A stretch of DNA of 64,000 nucleotides from a virus. The stretch is from positions 1 through 64,000 of the IMG/VR virus record IMGVR_UViG_3300037325_000137, one strand, 5' to 3'. The notes beneath the pieces are model-generated. The model was not told the DNA's origin. It saw only the letters and a program-made list of their open reading frames with translations, and made no database searches. Numbering within the stretch: position 1 is the first letter of the stretch; each line of letters starts with the position of its first letter. Of this stretch, positions 43,502 through 63,750 are shown in pieces. The translations under genes were made by a program, and so were the position numbers.

Positions 43502-43798
43502 GTTAGCACACATTAAAACTATCTAATATATATTTCGCTAATTTTAAGGCTTGCTCTTTATTTAAGTAAGTATGTGCATCTCCTTGAAAATCTCCCTCTA
43601 TCTCAATCTCAAAGTCATTATCCTTGTCTACTGGGTTTATCACAAAATTATCAAGTGATAAACGTGTGCTAACACTTGGTATAGTGCATTGCTCGGTTTC
43701 GGTTTTTTTACTATCTGTATTCATAATTCAAAGTTTTTGTGTAATTAATTAAGTTCGTGCTATAAGGTCGCAACGACACCATACCATATCCGTTATTA
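43502..43798 (+). mobile_element. Solitary integron-like cassette outside the array
   Basis: GTTAGCACACATT(43502)...AACGTGTGCTAAC(43673), then arms GGTATAGTGCATTGC / GCAACGACACCATACC and GTT at 43792. Confidence 0.75.
43503..43724 (-). CDS. Cassette-encoded hypothetical protein
   Basis: Starts in the attC-like loop; stop TAA lies within the GTTA core. Confidence 0.7.
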   Translation of the reverse strand: MNTDSKKTETEQCTIPSVSTRLSLDNFVINPVDKDNDFEIEIEGDFQGDAHTYLNKEQALKLAKYILDSFNVC

Positions 43799-56712: not shown

Positions 56713-56941
56713 AAAAATCGATTATTGAATTGTGAGCCTTTAATATTTTAATTAGATTCATATAAGTGCTATTATCTTGTGTTTCTTTTATAAATATTTC
56801 TAAGAACTCTTTGTGAGTAATAGGCTTGTAATTTATAAAGAAATCATATTTAAGACTAGGATTAGATGTGATTATATTTCCTATTTCTTGAATATTGTAG
56901 GATTTAAACCTGTGACCTAAATTATTTCTAATTTTATACAT
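56693..56941 (-). CDS. Hypothetical protein translationally coupled to the integrase
   Basis: ATG overlaps the integrase stop codon. Confidence 0.6.
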   Translation of the reverse strand: MYKIRNNLGHRFKSYNIQEIGNIITSNPSLKYDFFINYKPITHKEFLEIFIKETQDNSTYMNLIKILKAHNSIIDFYEKQDK

Positions 56942-57750
56942 TAAATAGGCATTTGAATTTTGCTTAAATGATTTTTTGAAACGTGGGTGTAAATTTCAGT
57001 TGTCTTAGAGCTTTGATGCCCCGCAATAGATTGGATTATCCTTAAATCAGTACCTCCCTCTAGTAAGTGAGTGAAGCAACTATGCCTAAGCTGATGCATA
57101 TAAGCATCTTCTTTAATATACTTTTTAATTATTTTATTACAAGATGTGGCTGAATACTGTAAAGAAGACTGACCGTTAAAAAGATATTCTTTTGGTCTAT
57201 GTTTTTTAAAGTAATCCCTAAGTGTTTTTAGTAGCCCATTAGACAAAGGAACAACTCTATCTTTCTTGCCTTTAGCTTGAATTATATGAATCAATCCTCT
57301 ATTTGAATCAATGTTTTCTATTTTCAGATTTATTATTTCTGAAACCCTTAATCCGCAACTATATGCTGCGGATAAAATAGCTTTATGTTTCATGTTTTTT
57401 ATAGATAATATTTTTTCTGTAAGAATTTTTTTATCTATTATTTGGGGTAGCTTTTTTTCTTTTCTAGGTCTTGAAAAATCTACTTTATCGTATTTTTTAT
57501 TCAGAACTTTTTTGTAAAGAAACTTGATTGAGCTTATTATTTGATTTTGTTGCGATATAGAGCTGAAATTATAATTTTCTAAATAAGATTTAAAATCATT
57601 ACTATCTAGCTTAGAAGGAGACTTTTTATTGACTCTTAAAAATTCTTCAACGTAATAACTATATATTTTTACAGTATTTTTACTGTAGTTAAAATAGTTC
57701 AATTTTGAAATGAAATTCTGCAGAAAAGTGTGTTTAGTTTTGCTTAACAT
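56941..57750 (-). CDS. Tyrosine recombinase, integron-integrase-like but lacking the IntI insertion
   Basis: SAM-like N-terminus (YSKNTVKIY); catalytic R (GLRVSE), K (KGKKDR), HQLRH, GH, Y (TTEIYTHV); 269 aa. Confidence 0.9.
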   Translation of the reverse strand: MLSKTKHTFLQNFISKLNYFNYSKNTVKIYSYYVEEFLRVNKKSPSKLDSNDFKSYLENYNFSSISQQNQIISSIKFLYKKVLNKKYDKVDFSRPRKEKKLPQIIDKKILTEKILSIKNMKHKAILSAAYSCGLRVSEIINLKIENIDSNRGLIHIIQAKGKKDRVVPLSNGLLKTLRDYFKKHRPKEYLFNGQSSLQYSATSCNKIIKKYIKEDAYMHQLRHSCFTHLLEGGTDLRIIQSIAGHQSSKTTEIYTHVSKNHLSKIQMPI

Positions 57751-57799
57751 ATTGATTTATATTGATTTGTTAGTTATGGTTGATATATAGTAGTTAGCA
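57751..57799 (+). other. attI-like site
   Basis: ATTGATTT direct repeats (57751, 57761) and GATATATAGTA-G|TT at 57793 where the first cassette begins; no hairpin. Confidence 0.6.
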
Positions 57800-58084
57800 A
57801 ACATTATTCAAATAATCACAGTACATTTTTGCCTGTTCTTCGCTATGTATAAAGAACACTACCTCTATACCTTTGCCATCGAGTACCGCTTTACCTTGTT
57901 TTCTGCCAACTCTAAAAGGTGGTGTATATTTATTAGCATCATAACGTTTGCTAACACCAGATAAAATTAATGCCTCGTCTACTGCATTTTTAATAAGTCC
58001 TATACATTCTTCTTTTGCTAATGAAGTTCCTACCCAACTTTTTAAATTTTGTGCATGTTTATCAATTATTTGCTCTTTAGTCAT
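57794..58084 (-). CDS. Cassette 1 hypothetical protein
   Basis: Starts in the attC1 loop; stop lies in the GTTA core. Confidence 0.7.
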   Translation of the reverse strand: MTKEQIIDKHAQNLKSWVGTSLAKEECIGLIKNAVDEALILSGVSKRYDANKYTPPFRVGRKQGKAVLDGKGIEVVFFIHSEEQAKMYCDYLNNVC

Positions 58085-58147
58085 TGTCTATTTATTTAAT
58101 TATTGTTATTATTTATCGGCACTAATCTTATCTGCGGTACGTTAGCT
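57949..58147 (+). repeat. attC-like site 1
   Basis: TGCTAAC-ACC-AGATAAAATTAATGCC ... GGCACTAATCTTATCT-GCGGTAC-GTTAGCT. Confidence 0.8.
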
Positions 58148-58155
58148 ACAAGTGC

Positions 58156-58875
58156 TTAATTTAGTTGATTAAACAAAGTTGGTGCTTCAATCTCTTTTTC
58201 TTTTTTTTTCCCCACCCTTTCACTCGCAATATCAAAATAATCCTGTTGCATTTCAATTCCAATAAATCTTCTATTTAGGTTTTTACAAGCAACTCCTGTT
58301 GTACCACTACCCATAAAAGGGTCTAATACTACTTCGTTTTCATTAGTTGAGTTGTTTATATAAAATTCCATTAATTCTATTGGTTTTTCTGTTGGGTGTA
58401 CTTTACTCCCAATTATATTATTAAAAGAATGTACTGTTTTGCTTCCGCCAATGTCATTTATGTATTTAGATTTTCCTTTTCTAAAAAATATAGTGTACTC
58501 GCAATTCTTCATATAAAATTGAGAAGGTGTGCAGTTGTTTTTTTGCCAAACTAAAAAGTTTTGTATTTTAAATCCTGCTTTTTCTATCTCGTTTGCCATT
58601 TTTAGTAAATTAGAAGAGTTTACCATCACATAGTTTTGAGTTCCATCTTTTAGTATTCTAAACATTTCTGGCAACCATTCACTAAATTTAGGAACACTCC
58701 TCATTAGTTCTCTATTTCCTTTCAATATACCTTTTGGTCTAATACTGTTTTTGCCATTACTATCACCTCCTGTTATTATTTTATAAGGAGGGTCAGTAAC
58801 TACACAATCAATACTTTCGCTTGGTAATGTTTTTAATATTTCAAGGGCATCACCCATTTTTAAATCTATATTCAT
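58156..58875 (-). CDS. Cassette 2: DNA N6-adenine/N4-cytosine methyltransferase (beta class)
   Basis: TDPPY, HPTEKP, VLDPFMGSGTT. Confidence 0.92.
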   Translation of the reverse strand: MNIDLKMGDALEILKTLPSESIDCVVTDPPYKIITGGDSNGKNSIRPKGILKGNRELMRSVPKFSEWLPEMFRILKDGTQNYVMVNSSNLLKMANEIEKAGFKIQNFLVWQKNNCTPSQFYMKNCEYTIFFRKGKSKYINDIGGSKTVHSFNNIIGSKVHPTEKPIELMEFYINNSTNENEVVLDPFMGSGTTGVACKNLNRRFIGIEMQQDYFDIASERVGKKKEKEIEAPTLFNQLN

Positions 58876-58975
58876 AATGTTTTAATTTTATCAAATTAAT
58901 TTGCCAACGCTCAAAAAAGAAAATAAAAAGGTTCAGTTCTATTAATTAAGTTTAGGTGTTTAAAGTCGCACCAGT

Positions 58976-59032
58976 AGGTAACACTGTATAAAAGCCATTG
59001 AAAATAACGGCTCTTATACCCATCCGTTAGCA
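58976..59032 (+). repeat. attC-like site 2 (57 bp)
   Basis: AGGTAAC-ACT-GTATAAAAGCC ... GGCTCTTATAC-CCATCC-GTTAGCA. Confidence 0.8.
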
Positions 59033-59036
59033 ACAA

Positions 59037-59279
59037 TTAATTGCCCTGTAAGTAATTGTCTGCAATCCATTCTTTACTTACAAACCTATTTCCTCCACCT
59101 TTTTCAAGGCTTGTTAAAAGGTCAATTAACAGTTCCCTTCGGTTGCTAACATCGTTTAACCGTAATTGCTCGGTTACGTACTTATCTATGAAGTCTGTTA
59201 ACCATTCTACCTTTTCATTTCCAGTCATATCGTTTCTTGATACAAGTTGGTTTAATTTTTCAATCTCTGTTATTTTCAT
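59037..59279 (-). CDS. Cassette 3 hypothetical protein
   Basis: Starts in the attC3 loop; arm read as QLRLNDVSNR. Confidence 0.7.
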   Translation of the reverse strand: MKITEIEKLNQLVSRNDMTGNEKVEWLTDFIDKYVTEQLRLNDVSNRRELLIDLLTSLEKGGGNRFVSKEWIADNYLQGN

Positions 59280-59343
59280 CTGTTCTTATTTATTAAGTTT
59301 TGTTATTAATTCACGCAACTACGGTTACACGTAGCCGTTGTAG
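59144..59343 (+). repeat. attC-like site 3
   Basis: TGCTAAC-AT-CGTTTAACCGTAATTGC ... GCAACTACGGTTACACG-TAGCC-GTT. Confidence 0.8.
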
Positions 59344-59348
59344 TGCAT

Positions 59349-59645
59349 TTACATTACGTTTCGCTCGATACTTATGTTTTTATCAGTAACAACTACTATA
59401 AAGCTTGTTCTTTGCACCGCCAAAGGGGCTTTTTTTTCAAGATGTTTAAGAACGTGGTTTGCACCATTATTTACTATATCACGTCTAGTTTTTAATTGAT
59501 GAAGTTTGTTTTGTACTTGCTCAATTTCGGCTTCCAATTCTTCTTTCTCTAAAGCTATATTCACTAATATATCAGCCCCTTTTATTTCCTCGCCTTGAAT
59601 AAGGTCAGTAATTCCAGAGAAACTTAGGTCGTCAATTTTTTTCAT
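59349..59645 (-). CDS. Cassette 4 coiled-coil hypothetical protein
   Basis: ORF between cognate inverted repeats; start taken at MKKIDD. Confidence 0.7.
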   Translation of the reverse strand: MKKIDDLSFSGITDLIQGEEIKGADILVNIALEKEELEAEIEQVQNKLHQLKTRRDIVNNGANHVLKHLEKKAPLAVQRTSFIVVVTDKNISIERNVM

Positions 59646-59659
59646 AGCAAAAAAACGCA

Positions 59660-59791
59660 CTACAACACTGTATAAAAATAATAGCCTGTTGTAGTGTCTT
59701 TTTAGTGGCTATTACTCACTTATTAATTAATTGTTTAACTTAAACTTTTCGCTTATTTATTCGGCTACTATTCTTATACTAAACGTTGTAA
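59660..59791 (+). repeat. attC-like site 4
   Basis: TACAAC-ACT-GTATAAAAATAATAGCC ... GGCTACTATTCTTATAC-TAAAC-GTT. Confidence 0.85.
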
Positions 59792-59795
59792 GTAA

Positions 59796-60029
59796 TTAAG
59801 GTTCGAGATACCTCAAAGGCACTTCTTTACTCCAAAAACCACCCTTATCAATGTTCTGTACTAACGCTCTTGGTTCGTCATAATATTCTTGTGTTTTACC
59901 ATCTTGAAATATTGGATAATACACCAACATCCATCTGTCTTTTTTACCATCCATTTTATAAACGCTTTCGTTACGCTTATGATTTTTCCAAATCGGGTGG
60001 TTTAAGGCTTTTTCTAAATCTATGTTCAT
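59796..60029 (-). CDS. Cassette 5 hypothetical protein
   Basis: ORF between GTTGTAAGTAATTAA and TTAACTACTTACAAC. Confidence 0.7.
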   Translation of the reverse strand: MNIDLEKALNHPIWKNHKRNESVYKMDGKKDRWMLVYYPIFQDGKTQEYYDEPRALVQNIDKGGFWSKEVPLRYLEP

Positions 60030-60049
60030 TTCTTATTTGCTTTAACTAC

Positions 60050-60252
60050 TTACAACACTATATATAATTAATATAAAAGGGGCGCAGTCCAACTATCCGT
60101 TATTCCTTTCGGGTCAAGCCTAAGCCCCCACGGAAGGAACGTTTTACAGGCTTTGGACACCTTCAATTTCACTATCTAAAACGCTGTTGGTAAACCCACT
60201 AATTTCTGCATTTTTAACCCCTTTTAAACTAATCATATATTTTACGTTATAA
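60050..60252 (+). repeat. attC-like site 5 with a structured GC-rich loop
   Basis: TACAAC-ACT-ATATATAATTAATATAAAAGGGG ... CCCCTTTTAAACTAATCATATAT-TTTAC-GTT. Confidence 0.75.
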
Positions 60253-60519
60253 ACAATACTCTTTTTGTGTATATGGTTCAGAGTAGAAGCATTTATCAGT
60301 ACTATCAAATTTAATATTTCTATACCAAGTTATTTCTGTATTTGTTGTTTTTCCTGTTCTACTACTGCAATCACAATCTTTATGACATTGGCAACTACCA
60401 TTATCAATAGAAGTGTATTTTTTAGTAAATATTCTATAAGAAACACCATCTATAATTGTGATTTGCAATGCTTCCATTTCTATATTCAATCTTTTAGGGT
60501 TTAACAATCTTTCTCGCAT
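60247..60519 (-). CDS. Cassette 6 Cys-rich hypothetical protein
   Basis: CQCHKDCDC; stop in the GTTA core; start taken at MRERLL. Confidence 0.65.
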   Translation of the reverse strand: MRERLLNPKRLNIEMEALQITIIDGVSYRIFTKKYTSIDNGSCQCHKDCDCSSRTGKTTNTEITWYRNIKFDSTDKCFYSEPYTQKEYCL

Positions 60520-60533
60520 AACTTCCGTACAGT

Positions 60534-60628
60534 TTATAACACAGGCTATAAATAAAAGCCCTGTCAAGGTTATTGTTGTGAATCGAACTTTGTGTTTAGG
60601 GCTTCAATTCATAGCCGAGCCGTTATCT
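60534..60628 (+). repeat. attC-like site 6
   Basis: TATAAC-ACA-GGCTATAAATAAAAGCCCT ... AGGGCTTCAATTCATAGCC-GAGCC-GTT. Confidence 0.8.
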
Positions 60629-60799
60629 TTAATAATCAAACTCTTCCTCATTTAATACATCAAAGTGAATATCCTCATTTAATACATCAAAGTGAATATC
60701 CTCTATTTTGTTTTTAATAAACAGTCTTTTAATTCGATAGATAACTAAAGATAACAATGTATAAAATGCATAGCTTAATTTCGTTCTTAAATTTTTCAT
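60629..60799 (-). CDS. Cassette 7 small protein (56 aa) with a 9-aa tandem duplication
   Basis: MKNLRTKLSYAFYTLLSLVIYRIKRLFIKNKIEDIHFDVLNEDIHFDVLNEEEFDY; 27-bp repeat x2 at 60645-60703. Confidence 0.55.
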   Translation of the reverse strand: MKNLRTKLSYAFYTLLSLVIYRIKRLFIKNKIEDIHFDVLNEDIHFDVLNEEEFDY

Positions 60800-60886
60800 C
60801 TGTTCTGTTTTTAAAGTTTATAATTTATAATTAATTCAAAGTCTGTGGTGTTTAGGTCGCTACGCACCTTATACTAAACGTTGTGT
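60749..60886 (+). repeat. attC-like site 7
   Basis: GATAAC-AAT-GTATAAAATGCATAGC ... GCTACGCACCTTATAC-TAAAC-GTT. Confidence 0.8.
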
Positions 60887-60894
60887 GTAATACT

Positions 60895-61137
60895 TTATTT
60901 AGGTTCGTTTACAGCATTACTATCTACTTTTTTCCAAGGACGTTCTATCATATTACAACCTGCTTGATACCAAGTTTGTATTTGTAATTTATTACATTTT
61001 GTACACTTTCTAAAATGAGCATATCTATTATCTTCTTTTCTACCACCGTCCCAATACTTATAAGGATGATATAAATTAAAAAAACAAAGTAATTTTTGCA
61101 ATGCTTTAGGTTTGTCTATTCTTAAAACTTTTTCCAT
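60895..61137 (-). CDS. Cassette 8 small Zn-binding protein (DUF1660-like)
   Basis: LLC....H......RKCTKC. Confidence 0.65.
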   Translation of the reverse strand: MEKVLRIDKPKALQKLLCFFNLYHPYKYWDGGRKEDNRYAHFRKCTKCNKLQIQTWYQAGCNMIERPWKKVDSNAVNEPK

Positions 61138-61171
61138 TTTAATAAAGTTTGTGGCTTAAATTCCGTATTAC

Positions 61172-61267
61172 ACACAACAATGTATATAGTTTATAAGCCA
61201 ATTAATATTTGTTTTTAATTTGTAAATTTCTGATATGGCTTACAAAACCATATACTCAACGTTAGGC
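61172..61267 (+). repeat. attC-like site 8
   Basis: CACAAC-AAT-GTATATAGTTTATAAGCCA ... TGGCTTACAAAACCATATAC-TCAAC-GTT. Confidence 0.85.
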
Positions 61268-61271
61268 ACAA

Positions 61272-61577
61272 TTAAGGTTTGCGTCCTAATAACTTACTTA
61301 GCTTCATCCCCAACCACTCAGGGCAAGGTATAGCTACTACCCATCTTAAATAAGGCAATATACCTACAAAACCAATCCCCCAATGCTCTGTTGCAACTAT
61401 TGAAACTTCAAAGCTAAATGCGTCTAAAGTCCAAAATGTAAATATTAGCCATCTAAAACTAAAACTACTTGTATTGTGTTCGTCTGCTTTCCTTATTTCT
61501 ATTAAGGGTATTAATGGAAATACATTTTTGTTGTACCATTTTTCTGTTCTCATTCTTCCTGATGCTGTTTGTGACAT
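61272..61577 (-). CDS. Cassette 9 hypothetical protein
   Basis: ORF between GTTAGGCAC and GTGCCTAAC. Confidence 0.7.
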   Translation of the reverse strand: MSQTASGRMRTEKWYNKNVFPLIPLIEIRKADEHNTSSFSFRWLIFTFWTLDAFSFEVSIVATEHWGIGFVGILPYLRWVVAIPCPEWLGMKLSKLLGRKP

Positions 61578-61587
61578 AATTAAAAGT

Positions 61588-61681
61588 GCCTAACAATAGC
61601 TAAAGTTAATAGCCTCAATAGGTCTTGTTATAATTTGATGGTTAGTATTAAAGGCTACTAACCTTAGCCTAGACGTTATGA
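61588..61681 (+). repeat. attC-like site 9
   Basis: GCCTAAC-AATA-GCTAAAGTTAATAGCCT ... AGGCTACTAACCTTAGC-CTAGAC-GTT. Confidence 0.85.
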
Positions 61682-61834
61682 TGCAATTAAAATTTTAAGC
61701 ATCTCGTTTAACTTCCCTACACATTGAGCATAGTATCGTTCATTATCTTCCTGTTTCATTATTTTAGCTACTTCATAAAGGTCTGTATAAATACCAATTT
61801 TCTTTATTACAATACTTTTTAGTTCATCCATCAT
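61676..61834 (-). CDS. Cassette 10 small helical protein
   Basis: MMDELKSIV...; stop in the GTTA core. Confidence 0.55.
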   Translation of the reverse strand: MMDELKSIVIKKIGIYTDLYEVAKIMKQEDNERYYAQCVGKLNEMLKILIAS

Positions 61835-61849
61835 TAAAATTTTAAAAGC

Positions 61850-61934
61850 ACATAACAATGTATAAAATTAATGCGCTATGATAATTAGTGTTAAATTTTT
61901 AAGTATGTGGTTAGCGCACTAATCTTATACTAAC
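61850..61934 (+). repeat. attC-like site 10 (downstream GTT core apparently deleted)
   Basis: CATAAC-AAT-GTATAAAATTAATGCGCTA ... TAGCGCACTAATCTTATAC-TAAC, with no GTT at the expected position. Confidence 0.75.
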
Positions 61935-61944
61935 TGCAATGTTG

Positions 61945-62193
61945 CTATTTAAAGTTTTGCCTAAACGGCTTGTTACATTTTGGACAAGAAGTGCCTAAAT
62001 ACAAGCCTTTGATTATCGGTTCGCAACACTGTTCGCTCTGCCTTACAACAACGGGTATAGAAAATAATTCAGAAGGCATCAGTCTTTCTATCACGTCTAT
62101 TGCACTCCATATTTCTCTTGATTCATAACTGTGATGTATTGAGTCAAAGTGTTCTGCTCTTTTTTCTAGTGTTTTAATAACGTCTGCTTTCAT
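61945..62193 (-). CDS. Cassette 11 protein with C-terminal Zn-ribbon
   Basis: Starts in the attC11 loop; arm read as LFSIPVVVRQ; CC...CPKC. Confidence 0.7.
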   Translation of the reverse strand: MKADVIKTLEKRAEHFDSIHHSYESREIWSAIDVIERLMPSELFSIPVVVRQSEQCCEPIIKGLYLGTSCPKCNKPFRQNFK

Positions 62194-62253
62194 CTTTTAA
62201 GTTTTTGCGTTTTAAATCCTCCTAAATTAAATTCCATACCCAAACCGTTAGCA
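62043..62253 (+). repeat. attC-like site 11
   Basis: TTACAAC-AAC-GGGTATAGAAAATAATT ... AATTAAATTCCATACCC-AAACC-GTT. Confidence 0.75.
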
Positions 62254-62373
62254 TTAATACTCAGTACCTAAGTATTCTACTAAATAAGGGTAGTCCCAAC
62301 TTTTACTGCTACTGTAATACATTTTCCAGTAACCTCTATTATTCTTTATTATTTCAGTCCATTTACTTGTCAT
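62254..62373 (-). CDS. Cassette 12 micro-protein (39 aa)
   Basis: MTSKWTEIIKNNRGYWKMYYSSSKSWDYPYLVEYLGTEY between GTTAGCATTAATAC and GTACTAATGCTAAC. Confidence 0.55.
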   Translation of the reverse strand: MTSKWTEIIKNNRGYWKMYYSSSKSWDYPYLVEYLGTEY

Positions 62374-62400
62374 AGTTTCTATTTTTTAAGTCCGTACTAA

Positions 62401-62453
62401 TGCTAACAATATGTAAAAAACATTAAAACGATGTGTTATACTAGACGTTAGCA
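62401..62453 (+). repeat. attC-like site 12 (minimal, 53 bp)
   Basis: TGCTAAC-AATATGTAAAAAACAT...ATGTGTTATAC-TAGAC-GTT. Confidence 0.65.
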
Positions 62454-62732
62454 AACATTTATGTTGTTGCTATCTATAAAGCTTTTAGGATTTCCGCAAC
62501 CTATTAAAAACTCTGCTCCGTTACCTAATTTAAAGTAACATCTATCCCAATCATTGCTTCTATCGAAAGTAAAATTTTCACCTTTTTTTATGGTATAATA
62601 ACACCCTTTCCAACTCAAATTCTCCCTTCTATTGTTAGGTATATTACCCACATCAGTGGCTTCTATGGGTGTGCTACCATACCTACCTTTATCAATAAAA
62701 ACTCTAATATCTTCTGTTGCTTGTAAATTCAT
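62448..62732 (-). CDS. Cassette 13 hypothetical protein
   Basis: Start taken at MNLQAT; stop in the GTTA core. Confidence 0.7.
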   Translation of the reverse strand: MNLQATEDIRVFIDKGRYGSTPIEATDVGNIPNNRRENLSWKGCYYTIKKGENFTFDRSNDWDRCYFKLGNGAEFLIGCGNPKSFIDSNNINVC

Positions 62733-62744
62733 AATTAAACGATT

Positions 62745-62838
62745 TGCTAACACAACCTATACACCATAAAGCAATATAGTATTGTGCTAATATTAAACAT
62801 TGTGCTACGCTTTACGGTGCATAGCTTTACCGTTGGCG
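62745..62838 (+). repeat. attC-like site 13
   Basis: TGCTAAC-ACAAC-CTATACACCATAAAGC ... GCTTTACGGTGCATAG-CTTTACC-GTT. Confidence 0.8.
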
Positions 62839-62844
62839 GTAATA

Positions 62845-63195
62845 CTACATTAGTACCTTATCCATCATTTCATTTATGTTCTCCGCAATTTTTTCATCAT
62901 AACCTCTATTGTAAAATTCATCGCCAGTAGTCAAATGATAAGTACCTATGTTATCCAAATACTGTTTCATTTTTTCATAAGGTTCAGTATTTTCATACCC
63001 TATCAAATTAAGATAAGACCAATAACATTTAATAGAAAATTGCTCTGTGTTTGTTCCTCTATCTGTTCTTTTTTCGTTTTGTCTTTGTATCCATAAGGCT
63101 TGTTCTTTCTTGTAGTCTGTGTACTTTAAAGCCGTACTACTGCCAACAAAAAATATAGCAAATGCTTTTCGTAATCTTTGGGTAAATTGTTTCAT
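62845..63195 (-). CDS. Cassette 14 hypothetical protein
   Basis: Starts in the attC14 loop; arm read as AFAIFFVGSS. Confidence 0.7.
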   Translation of the reverse strand: MKQFTQRLRKAFAIFFVGSSTALKYTDYKKEQALWIQRQNEKRTDRGTNTEQFSIKCYWSYLNLIGYENTEPYEKMKQYLDNIGTYHLTTGDEFYNRGYDEKIAENINEMMDKVLM

Positions 63196-63261
63196 ACTTC
63201 TAATTTTTAGTTCATTTAAGTTAGAGTGTTGTTGGCACTTGCCATCTTCAAACCGTTAGCC
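63141..63261 (+). repeat. attC-like site 14
   Basis: TGCCAAC-AAAAAATATAGCAAATGC ... GCACTTGCCATCTT-CAAACC-GTT. Confidence 0.75.
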
Positions 63262-63522
63262 ACCATTTGAAAAACCGCACTCATCCAAGAAGCTTTGTCC
63301 AACAGGAGAACCTAACCATTGAATTAAGTTTACGCAAATATCTTCTTCTTTTTCGGACAACCACTCTTTAGGTTGCGTTTGTCTATCATTAGACCACCCA
63401 TTCACAATAGCACTTAGGCTTTTTCTGGCAGAACCATCATGATTGAACATTTTAATAAATTTATCGTGAAATTCTTTTTCTTTAGGATTGTCATTAAATC
63501 TGTATTCTTTATTGCCTTTCAT
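63256..63522 (-). CDS. Cassette 15 hypothetical phage protein
   Basis: NPKEKEF...IQWLGSPVGQSFL; stop in the GTTA core. Confidence 0.75.
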   Translation of the reverse strand: MKGNKEYRFNDNPKEKEFHDKFIKMFNHDGSARKSLSAIVNGWSNDRQTQPKEWLSEKEEDICVNLIQWLGSPVGQSFLDECGFSNGG

Positions 63523-63533
63523 AGTAAAACGGT

Positions 63534-63656
63534 GGCTAACAATGTATATAGCAAATAGCCTTATTAGCCATTTTAGAAACTACTTGCTTGTTTATAATTT
63601 ATTTACTTTTTACTTAATTCTGTGATAGGCTACTTGCCATATACTAAACATTGTAG
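63534..63656 (+). repeat. attC-like site 15 (core ATT instead of GTT)
   Basis: GGCTAAC-AAT-GTATATAGCAAATAGCCT ... AGGCTACTTGCCATATAC-TAAAC-ATT. Confidence 0.8.
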
Positions 63657-63750
63657 TGCATTAAAACGTTCGATTCGCCACAACAACACGCTATATAAAT
63701 AATGCTTGGTTTCGTGCTGTAATCAAAGTTTAGCGCTTTTAATGCCATAA

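Follow-up and report, generated by a model that had tools for sequence, protein, structure and literature searches.

The window analysed here comprises 64,000 nucleotides (nt), bases 1-64000 of a virus record of 78,375 bp (IMG/VR record IMGVR_UViG_3300037325_000137) that carries direct terminal repeats of 127 bp and is rated complete. The genome has a G+C content of 31% and the minus strand holds nearly all of its genes. DNA matches lead to phages of marine Flavobacteriia, namely Tenacibaculum phage Gundel_1 (78.8 kb) and the Polaribacter phages P12002L and P12002S. Judged from its sequence, the record is a phage of this Flavobacteriia type bearing an integron-like system, which is composed of a tyrosine recombinase, an attI-like site and an array of approximately 16 cassettes. 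The subject of this work is a group of open reading frames (ORFs) that start inside the hairpin loops of the attC sites and are read through the inner recombination core into the gene body, as well as the probable reassortment of the N-terminal pieces and bodies that meet at this core.

The recombinase, the attI-like site and the attC units

The recombinase gene (56941..57750, minus strand) encodes a protein of 269 amino acids (aa) with the Pfam domains Phage_integrase and SAM_4. This protein is XerA/IntI-like and falls under every NCBIfam cut-off, its top matches being archaeal XerA, XerD and the integron-integrase model TIGR02249 (score of 157.7 versus a cut-off of 265, with the match split into two stretches). 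The nearest structural relative by sequence is the archaeal XerA, 4A8E. In comparison with VchIntIA (2A3V), about 48 residues are absent between residues 180 and 212 of the query, which correspond to VchIntIA residues 180-260; the extra segment that IntI enzymes have at this place (the I2 helix region) is therefore missing. Relatives of 55-67% identity are common in viral contigs, and the comparisons of related loci described below are based on 80 phage loci around such relatives.

The array occupies positions 57793..63690 of the minus strand. In this region attC units, each extending from an outer core AAC to an inner core GTT, alternate with bodies that possess private inverted-repeat ends. 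On the gene strand the hairpin is constituted, in this order, by the outer core RYYYAAC, the 5′ arm (consensus G-N3-4-GTATA..), the loop, the 3′ arm (..TATAC-A-K-T) and the inner core GTTRRRY. With a weight matrix derived from 15 arms, sites outside its training set are also recovered, as are solitary sites at 43.5 kb and at 74-75 kb. As in attC sites, the stems of the 16 units of the window are imperfect palindromes, 15-20 bp long and beginning 3-5 nt inside the cores, and their arm pairs fold at -6.5 to -15.9 kcal/mol (z from -0.7 to -4.6 versus shuffled arms). The gene strand folds better in 15 of these 16 units because of G·T pairs. With respect to extrahelical bases, no clear bulges were seen, the asymmetry residing in the unpaired spacer (5 nt versus 3 nt) and in the G·T pairs that favour the gene strand.

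The inner core is complementary to the RYYYAAC core (R″) that closes the same body, with no more than 1 mismatch in 9 positions for 287 of the 347 inner cores of the related loci, as is found at the start of integron cassettes. Both inverted-repeat ends of some bodies are translated (57794-57805, 62448-62456 and 43503-43512): these bodies start with V-S-K/T.. (GTTAGCA..) and end in ..N-V-C-stop (GTT TGC TAA C), the TAA stop lying inside the RYYYAAC core. Sites with the arm motif are direct repeats on one strand, and no inverted alternative segments, such as those of shufflons, were seen in the array.

The attI-like site (57751..57795) reads RYYYAAC|TAYTATATAT on the gene strand. The motif RYYYAAC|TATNATATAT was found approximately 45-50 nt upstream of the recombinase ATG in almost every locus (about 55 loci, from which an information profile was obtained). 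The stretch from the motif to the ATG is conserved within recombinase subfamilies, while all the sequence upstream of AAC is unrelated between loci. The site thus shares with attI its position beside the 5′ end of the integrase gene, its conservation up to G|TT and its variability beyond. In the related loci, hits of the 3′ arm form arrays that precede the recombinase and share its orientation (282 on that strand versus 48 on the other, most of the latter deriving from records fetched in reverse orientation). The order is therefore the classical one of integrase, attI and cassettes, yet the cassette genes, without exception, lie antisense to the array's top strand; all array ORFs run towards the recombinase, and the top-strand cassette ORFs of integrons were not found. 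As the attC comes first when a cassette is read along its gene, it is located at the 5′ end of that gene.

Judged by this conserved boundary, the canonical crossover takes place at the outer-type core, that is, at G|TT of the strand that does not carry the genes. Each ORF started in a hairpin therefore lies within one cassette. A 97%-identical block common to two related loci (L019 and L045) also spans from outer core to outer core. The ends of high-scoring segment pairs in an all-versus-all blastn comparison of the 80 loci accumulate at both cores, mainly due to the likeness of the attC units; since few shared cassettes were informative, the blastn ends alone could not settle the polarity. 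A model in which the gene strand is the top strand, the crossover lies at the inner core and the recombinase ATG overlaps the last R′ (AT|GTTAAGC at 57747) was rejected, since other loci do not preserve that GTT and have their conserved boundary at the outer-type core, some 45 nt upstream. By analogy with integrons, the recombinase may catalyse attI × attC and attC × attC exchange in this array.

Reading frames that begin in hairpin loops

An earlier note on this DNA, written from the letters alone, had described five ORFs that start in attC-like hairpin loops and cross the 3′ arm in a shared frame. All five are present on the minus strand with the peptides quoted there, and the GTT of the inner core is an in-phase valine codon in each of them (its G lies at plus-strand coordinates 57955, 59150, 62049, 63147 and 43673). 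ORF o1 (57794..58084, 96 aa) starts with the ATG at 58084, in the loop of a long attC unit (57953..58143); residues 1-43 form its N part, Val44 is encoded by the core and residues 44-96 constitute a body of 53 aa. ORF o2 (59037..59279, 80 aa) takes its start and a 43-codon N part from the long attC unit 59148..59339, and its body lacks an in-frame start codon. ORF o3 (61945..62193, 82 aa) takes its start and a 48-codon N part from the long attC unit 62047..62249, and its body is a CxxC..CxxC piece that resembles a mini zinc ribbon. ORF o4 (62845..63195, 116 aa) starts with a 16-codon leader in the attC unit 63145..63257. The fifth ORF (43503..43724) begins in the loop of the attC unit 43673-43792 and belongs to a solitary cassette (43502..43794) located 14 kb off the array.

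The three long units fold, and the pairing of the arms is clear for 58141/57955, 59337/59150, 62247/62049 and 43792/43673; the arms of the o4 unit (63255/63147) pair weakly, with three G·T pairs and one mismatch. These ORFs run through arms that fold as hairpins, so that the site is, as the earlier note stated, coding sequence and DNA structure at the same time. An A/T-rich leader separates the 5′ arm from the start codon, which follows the arm at a distance of 25-30 nt.

A sixth ORF (60629..60799), associated with the attC unit 60755-60880 (together 60629..60882, minus strand), does use another frame, since the core at 60755 is crossed in phase +1 as ..ACA TTG TTA.., one phase off. This ORF also holds a perfect tandem duplication (60640-60705) that encodes IEDIHFDVLNE twice. 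Further cases are 60247..60567, whose phase-0 frame runs uninterrupted through the core at 60540, and, outside the window, the plus-strand ORF 74750..74902 (..QLILSG|VVAS-stop), which ends 4 codons past the core. The latter ORF is carried by a second copy, on the plus strand (74448-75155), of the 5′ arm of the 58141 unit; the core that follows it faces an inverted inner-core arm at 75155, both cores being perfectly complementary.

The common phase extends well beyond this genome. ORFs crossing the core were counted at the 301 distinct inner cores of the 80 loci, taking those in which 15 or more codons lead from the ATG to the core and 25 or more from the core to the stop: 65 use phase 0, 12 phase 1 and 5 phase 2. 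The arm and core are open in 202, 164 and 122 of these cores for phases 0, 1 and 2, respectively, and stop codons in the arm therefore do not account for the excess of phase 0. Among the cores whose arm is free of stops in phase 0 as well as in phase 1, 29 have the long ORF in phase 0 and 8 in phase 1. The 71 phase-0 through-ORFs of these loci (63 of them with complementarity between core and R″) group into 58 N clusters and 70 C clusters; the counts are thus not dominated by a single family. In all, about a quarter of the attC units encode the start and the N-terminal piece of the next ORF.

It could be argued that the N extensions are chance open frames and that translation starts downstream of the arm. 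Every protein considered is a gene-caller prediction, and some bodies of the related loci begin with V-M, the ATG being placed directly after the core. However, stop-to-stop runs on the largely non-coding strand average 13 codons, and just 1.2% of them extend to 73 codons or more. Behind the core no in-frame start exists in 59037..59150, and in the other four ORFs the first one appears at codon 33, 16, 48 and 11. The most conserved residues of the o1 body (codons 3-19) are encoded upstream of any internal start, which argues against a start downstream of the arm, the outcome that the earlier note had named as contrary to its proposal. The phase bias of 65:12:5 and ratios of non-synonymous to synonymous substitution (dN/dS) below 1 for the N parts of o1 and o3 point in the same direction. 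None of the five ORFs is identified by Pfam or PHROGs, with the exception of a match between the N part of o3 alone and phrog_34143, a 50-aa profile; a known protein family thus equals this N part. This explanation by annotation artefact is highly improbable and has already been largely refuted by these data.

Mosaic homology at the inner core and its possible origins

Comparing the two halves of o1 and o3 separately revealed that their homologues are overwhelmingly half-matches, with the break placed at the core valine within about 2 codons. Far from being always collinear, which the earlier note had named as contrary to its proposal, the 84 homologues of o1 in metagenomes comprise approximately 16 N-only proteins, approximately 55 body-only proteins and 9 of near full length, these collinear ones being at most 63% identical. 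The N-only proteins share residues 1 to 44-48 of o1 with 75-96% identity and 27 invariant columns, and continue with unrelated sequence; the tails behind o1-type N parts include an o2-body-like (VSNQRELL) and an o3-body-like (VVGQSEQ) piece. Bodies of the o2 type (VSNQRELL..) were found behind o1-like and o3-like N parts. In the body-only proteins the match begins at query residue 29-46, corresponding to the residues encoded by the arm or to the core, and the N parts that precede o1-type bodies are unrelated and 5-65 residues long. The 17 metagenome homologues of o3 are divided into 9 N-only and 8 body-only proteins. For both ORFs, the nearest relatives of either half reach 96% identity while the other half is unrelated. 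Since body relatives with 92-96% identity already bear unrelated N parts, exchange must be frequent relative to divergence.

Cultured phages offer the same picture. Gundel1_62 has a body that is 74% identical (protein) to that of o3, and DNA homology stops exactly at the TACAAC core; its N part ends in ..TEQCTIHS|V and resembles that of the solitary ORF 43503..43724 (..TEQCTIPS|V). P12002L_0041 corresponds to the N part of o3 (58% identity over 48 aa) and ends 2 codons past the core, and P12002L_0037 combines an o1-like N part with an unrelated body. In the 80 loci, the 21-aa leader MEEVNKNTELDNTDKKLHISD|V stands before 5-7 unrelated bodies, and another four N clusters have two bodies each behind them. 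In all 16 members of these five N clusters DNA similarity stops exactly at GTT, and the next 6 nt differ and complement the R″ of the body itself. At locus L092 the N part of o1 is found on a third, different body with the core pair unchanged. Scans of viral contigs retrieved only 7 loci with the o1 body and none with the o1 N part, and the scan of metagenomes retrieved 2 loci.

These results are probably best explained by a reassortment, as modules, of the N parts borne by attC units and the bodies, which the shared phase allows to combine. Along the gene, a cassette consists of the outer core AA|C, the 5′ arm, the loop, the 3′ arm, the inner core GTT, the body and RYYYAA. In about a quarter of the units the loop holds the A/T-rich leader, an ATG and 7-65 codons, the last 6-8 of which are the 3′ arm; the GTT is then read as valine in the fixed phase, with bodies that begin at the core and often lack a start codon of their own. 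The array is a mosaic of two alternating types of module, attC units with or without N parts and bodies with private inverted-repeat ends, and both cores serve as junctions in their reassortment. Owing to the shared phase, a start-less body can be combined with any N part that an attC unit provides, like phase-compatible introns in exon shuffling. The fusions of N part and body are presumed to be translated as such. The inner-core exchange may come about through action of the recombinase on the other strand in its folded form (a "top-strand" reaction), or through an exchange of both strands across the core; a recombinase devoid of the IntI segment that reads the strand could act on either folded strand. 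The exact GTT junctions of the local families and the 92-96%-identical bodies with unrelated N parts suggest, as far as sequence comparison goes, a site-specific event at the inner core.

In a stronger version of this reading, the recombinase would exchange at both hairpin cores on either strand of a cruciform, and the array would be a combinatorial device for protein assembly in which pools of N modules and start-less bodies in phase 0 are recombined site-specifically among co-infecting phages. This version is rather unlikely. The proposal of the earlier note, that exchange at this second core joins loop-encoded N-termini to different C-termini, holds up insofar as the mosaic footprints are abundant; the canonical crossover is located at the other core, however, and to call the short N pieces domains would be an overstatement.

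A quite different explanation is one of compaction only: the start codon would have drifted into the attC of its own cassette, the ORF remaining inside one cassette, and the mosaicism would come from homologous recombination, exchange mediated by single-strand annealing proteins (SSAP), template switching in the arms or the process that attaches lineage-specific attCs, without the recombinase ever acting at the inner core. The attI-like boundary at the outer core and the extent of the L019/L045 block agree with it, as does the homogeneity of attC units within lineages, a feature of chromosomal integrons such as the VCRs of Vibrio. Contig pieces from other samples, in turn, are in favour of the modular reading. 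Array 31-mers are present in many salt-lake metagenomes, and contigs of 4 other samples were aligned to the array, excluding joints with sides of less than 30 nt; only the parts of the array covered by contigs are informative. Near-identical contig pieces end at the inner cores 57953, 58980, 59150, 60051, 61586, 62395 and 63683, and also at the outer cores 58151, 59025, 59337, 60244-60251, 60876, 61679, 62445 and 63649. The attC unit with the o1 N part is a separate near-identical piece (57953-58151) with unlike flanks in two other samples, and the region of the o2 N part was found as pieces 59150-59280. Since assembly contigs break where contexts diverge, such ends show near-identical modules in several different contexts, and the origin of the junctions is not readable from them.

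Compaction is also favoured by junctions situated at start codons and by those of the o1 family that lie 3-6 nt past GTT. However, homologous recombination would scatter the junctions, whereas the 16 members of the five N clusters stop exactly at GTT and continue with 6 nt of the body type; the highly similar bodies with unrelated N parts imply frequent exchange, and the strong bias for phase 0 would require an additional explanation. Compaction is accordingly a serious candidate, its chances falling somewhat short of even.

Another possibility is that the hairpins act mainly in the mRNA, in which the gene strand is the sense strand: leader ORFs would open the stem and couple translation to that of the body, and the fusions would be a by-product. 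Several features fit such a role, namely the better folding of the gene strand through G·T pairs (G·U in RNA) in 15 of the 16 units, the neutral evolution of short leaders, the existence of bodies with their own ATG and the N parts that stop 2-4 codons past the core (P12002L_0041 and the ORF 74750..74902). Nevertheless, many bodies lack any start codon, which makes fusion obligatory for them; purifying selection acts on the long N parts, which hardly vary from one context to another; and the private inverted-repeat ends and the attI-like site are left unexplained. A primary role in the mRNA is thus unlikely.

Selection differs among the pieces. The dN/dS ratio of the o1 body is 0.10-0.15 (versus three loci) and that of the o3 body 0.18, and judged by these ratios the bodies and the long N parts are under purifying selection. 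An AlphaFold2 model of o1, of low confidence (pLDDT 63.5, pTM 0.25), assigns two helices to the N part, and a beta-hairpin and a helix to the body. N parts thus appear to range from mere start-codon donors to conserved pieces with two predicted helices.

Different observations weigh against modular reassortment at the inner core. An exchange at this core is a non-canonical event, given the position of the attI-like boundary. Two-strand exchange across the core, recombination in the arms or a cassette-forming process could contribute to the inner-core junctions, and they could equally well be the product of homologous or template-switching recombination within the conserved arms, or of the first making of cassettes. 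A third class of junction separates attC plus leader from coding sequence, since contig pieces also end at the start codons 58879, 59279, 61138 and 63520. Stand-alone bodies exist that have their own ATG at the position of the core (P0043 and P0067). In the o1 body family the codon after the valine varies without covariation with the C-terminal NVC-stop in approximately 24 of 60 proteins, and locus L084 has a GTTGTG core on a body whose R″ matches GTTAGC; the junction is therefore not always at G|TT. With regard to selection, the dN/dS values of the long N parts, 0.33 for o3 (versus P12002L) and 0.25 for o1 (versus L092), derive from just 17 and 45 differences. Short leaders have a dN/dS of about 1, with differences distributed 117:80:120 by codon position, so that many N parts are not domains and look like donors of start codons. 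The phase counts are not fully independent, because the arm sequences and the last residues that they encode are related. Finally, the array ORFs and their homologues are predicted ORFs or gene-caller proteins throughout.

Comparison with known systems and further features

Integron cassettes are usually viewed as complete genes, each with a non-coding recombination site behind it. In this phage the site precedes the gene, is itself coding and obeys a phase convention that is population-wide, and N pieces and bodies reassort abundantly at the core.

Qi et al. (2023) described attC clusters (CALINs) in phage genomes, including two sites in Polaribacter phage P12002L, one of which recombined with IntI1/attI1 (PMC9892861). 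No recombinase, antisense genes or coding read-through were given for those phage sites in that work (PMC9892861). P12002L carries the same family of sites as the array of the window. The system shares with integrons and phage CALINs (PMC9892861) the imperfect-palindrome AAC/GTT sites, the complementarity of the cassette start to its own R″ and an attI-like site beside a tyrosine recombinase. Unlike integrons, however, it has a recombinase that is devoid of the IntI insertion; its genes all lie antisense to the top strand, each behind its attC, and approximately a quarter of the attCs encode a start and an N part in a fixed phase.

In class 1 integrons an initiation region borne by attI (ORF-11) and rare fused cassettes have been reported (PMC4670013, PMC8876359). 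As with ORF-11 of attI1 and with fused or N-terminally variable cassettes, for instance aac(6′)-Ib, a recombination site or an upstream cassette supplies the start and the first residues, in frame with a cassette ORF that has no start; the donor here is attC and not attI. The class 1 fusions are sporadic, are tied to attI or to the loss of attC and follow no phase convention, whereas in the phage loci the attC loop is the donor, the phenomenon is systematic (65 of 301 cores) and families of modules reassort. The likeness to ORF-11 is thus one of mechanism, not of membership of a class 1 element.

Shufflons (Rci/sfx of plasmid R64; hsdS) have in-frame tyrosine-recombinase sites inside genes and work by inversion within a closed set at one locus. 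The array resembles them in that such sites in coding sequence allow recombination to swap protein segments; it differs in its direct repeats, in its open, horizontally shared pool and in the swapping of the N part besides the C part. Exon shuffling depends on phase-compatible introns, and promoter-stem-loop (PeSL) elements mediate modular shuffling in T4-type phages. A common phase at module borders is shared with the former, without splicing, and conserved stem-loops as borders between small phage genes with the latter; PeSLs are not read as protein, while the borders of this array are DNA recombination cores near a dedicated recombinase. A literature search found no paper on attC loops that encode phase-fixed N-terminal modules.

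If modular reassortment is true, it would be a route to new small phage proteins from parts and, if the recombinase works at both cores, a prokaryotic counterpart of exon shuffling at the DNA level. These arrays would also be a tractable system for studying how cassettes and attCs become associated, and the same elements are borne by the cultured phages P12002L and Gundel_1, which makes them bench-testable. Gene callers and integron finders are liable to mishandle such arrays.

ORFs crossing the inner core were not found in the arrays of the 80 best recombinase loci from bacterial genomes (39-52% identity, with one partial match of 64%), few of which have arrays. Five loci from bacterial contigs, including Aequorivita and Flavobacteriaceae (L109, L126, L132, L150 and L162), have almost none. 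In these five, arrays of the 3′-arm motif are located downstream of, and opposite in strand to, a recombinase that is 44-47% identical to that of the window, its gene being inverted relative to the phage arrangement.

The array of the window has some irregular parts. A G+C-rich hairpin of 46 nt with GTT..AAC cores (GTTCCTTCC..GGAATAAC) occupies the place of a gene body at 60098-60143 and may be an "empty" body or a terminator within the array; the neighbouring attC (60056-60246) is irregular. At the distal end (63650-63690) the last outer core is degenerate (ATT for GTT) and is followed by a 37-nt body devoid of ORFs, the array being closed by a lone inner-core arm without a partner arm.

The cargo of the array likely consists of early, host-takeover or anti-defence genes, including methyltransferase cassettes. 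In P12002L (L083, 1138-4016), three DNA methyltransferase genes occupy separate cassettes, which are flanked by the same family of sites as in the window, and one of the three has a homologue in the methyltransferase cassette 58156..58875 of the window. Between both phages the core pair of this cassette differs in concert, being GTTACCTAC/GTAGCTAAC in the window and GTTGTATGT/GCATACAAC in P12002L. At another locus (L088, 1240-1700) a cassette of the o1 body family has the 13-nt sequence AATGGCTTATAAC on both sides, like a target duplication, and directly adjoins the attI-like TAGCGTATATAAGC.

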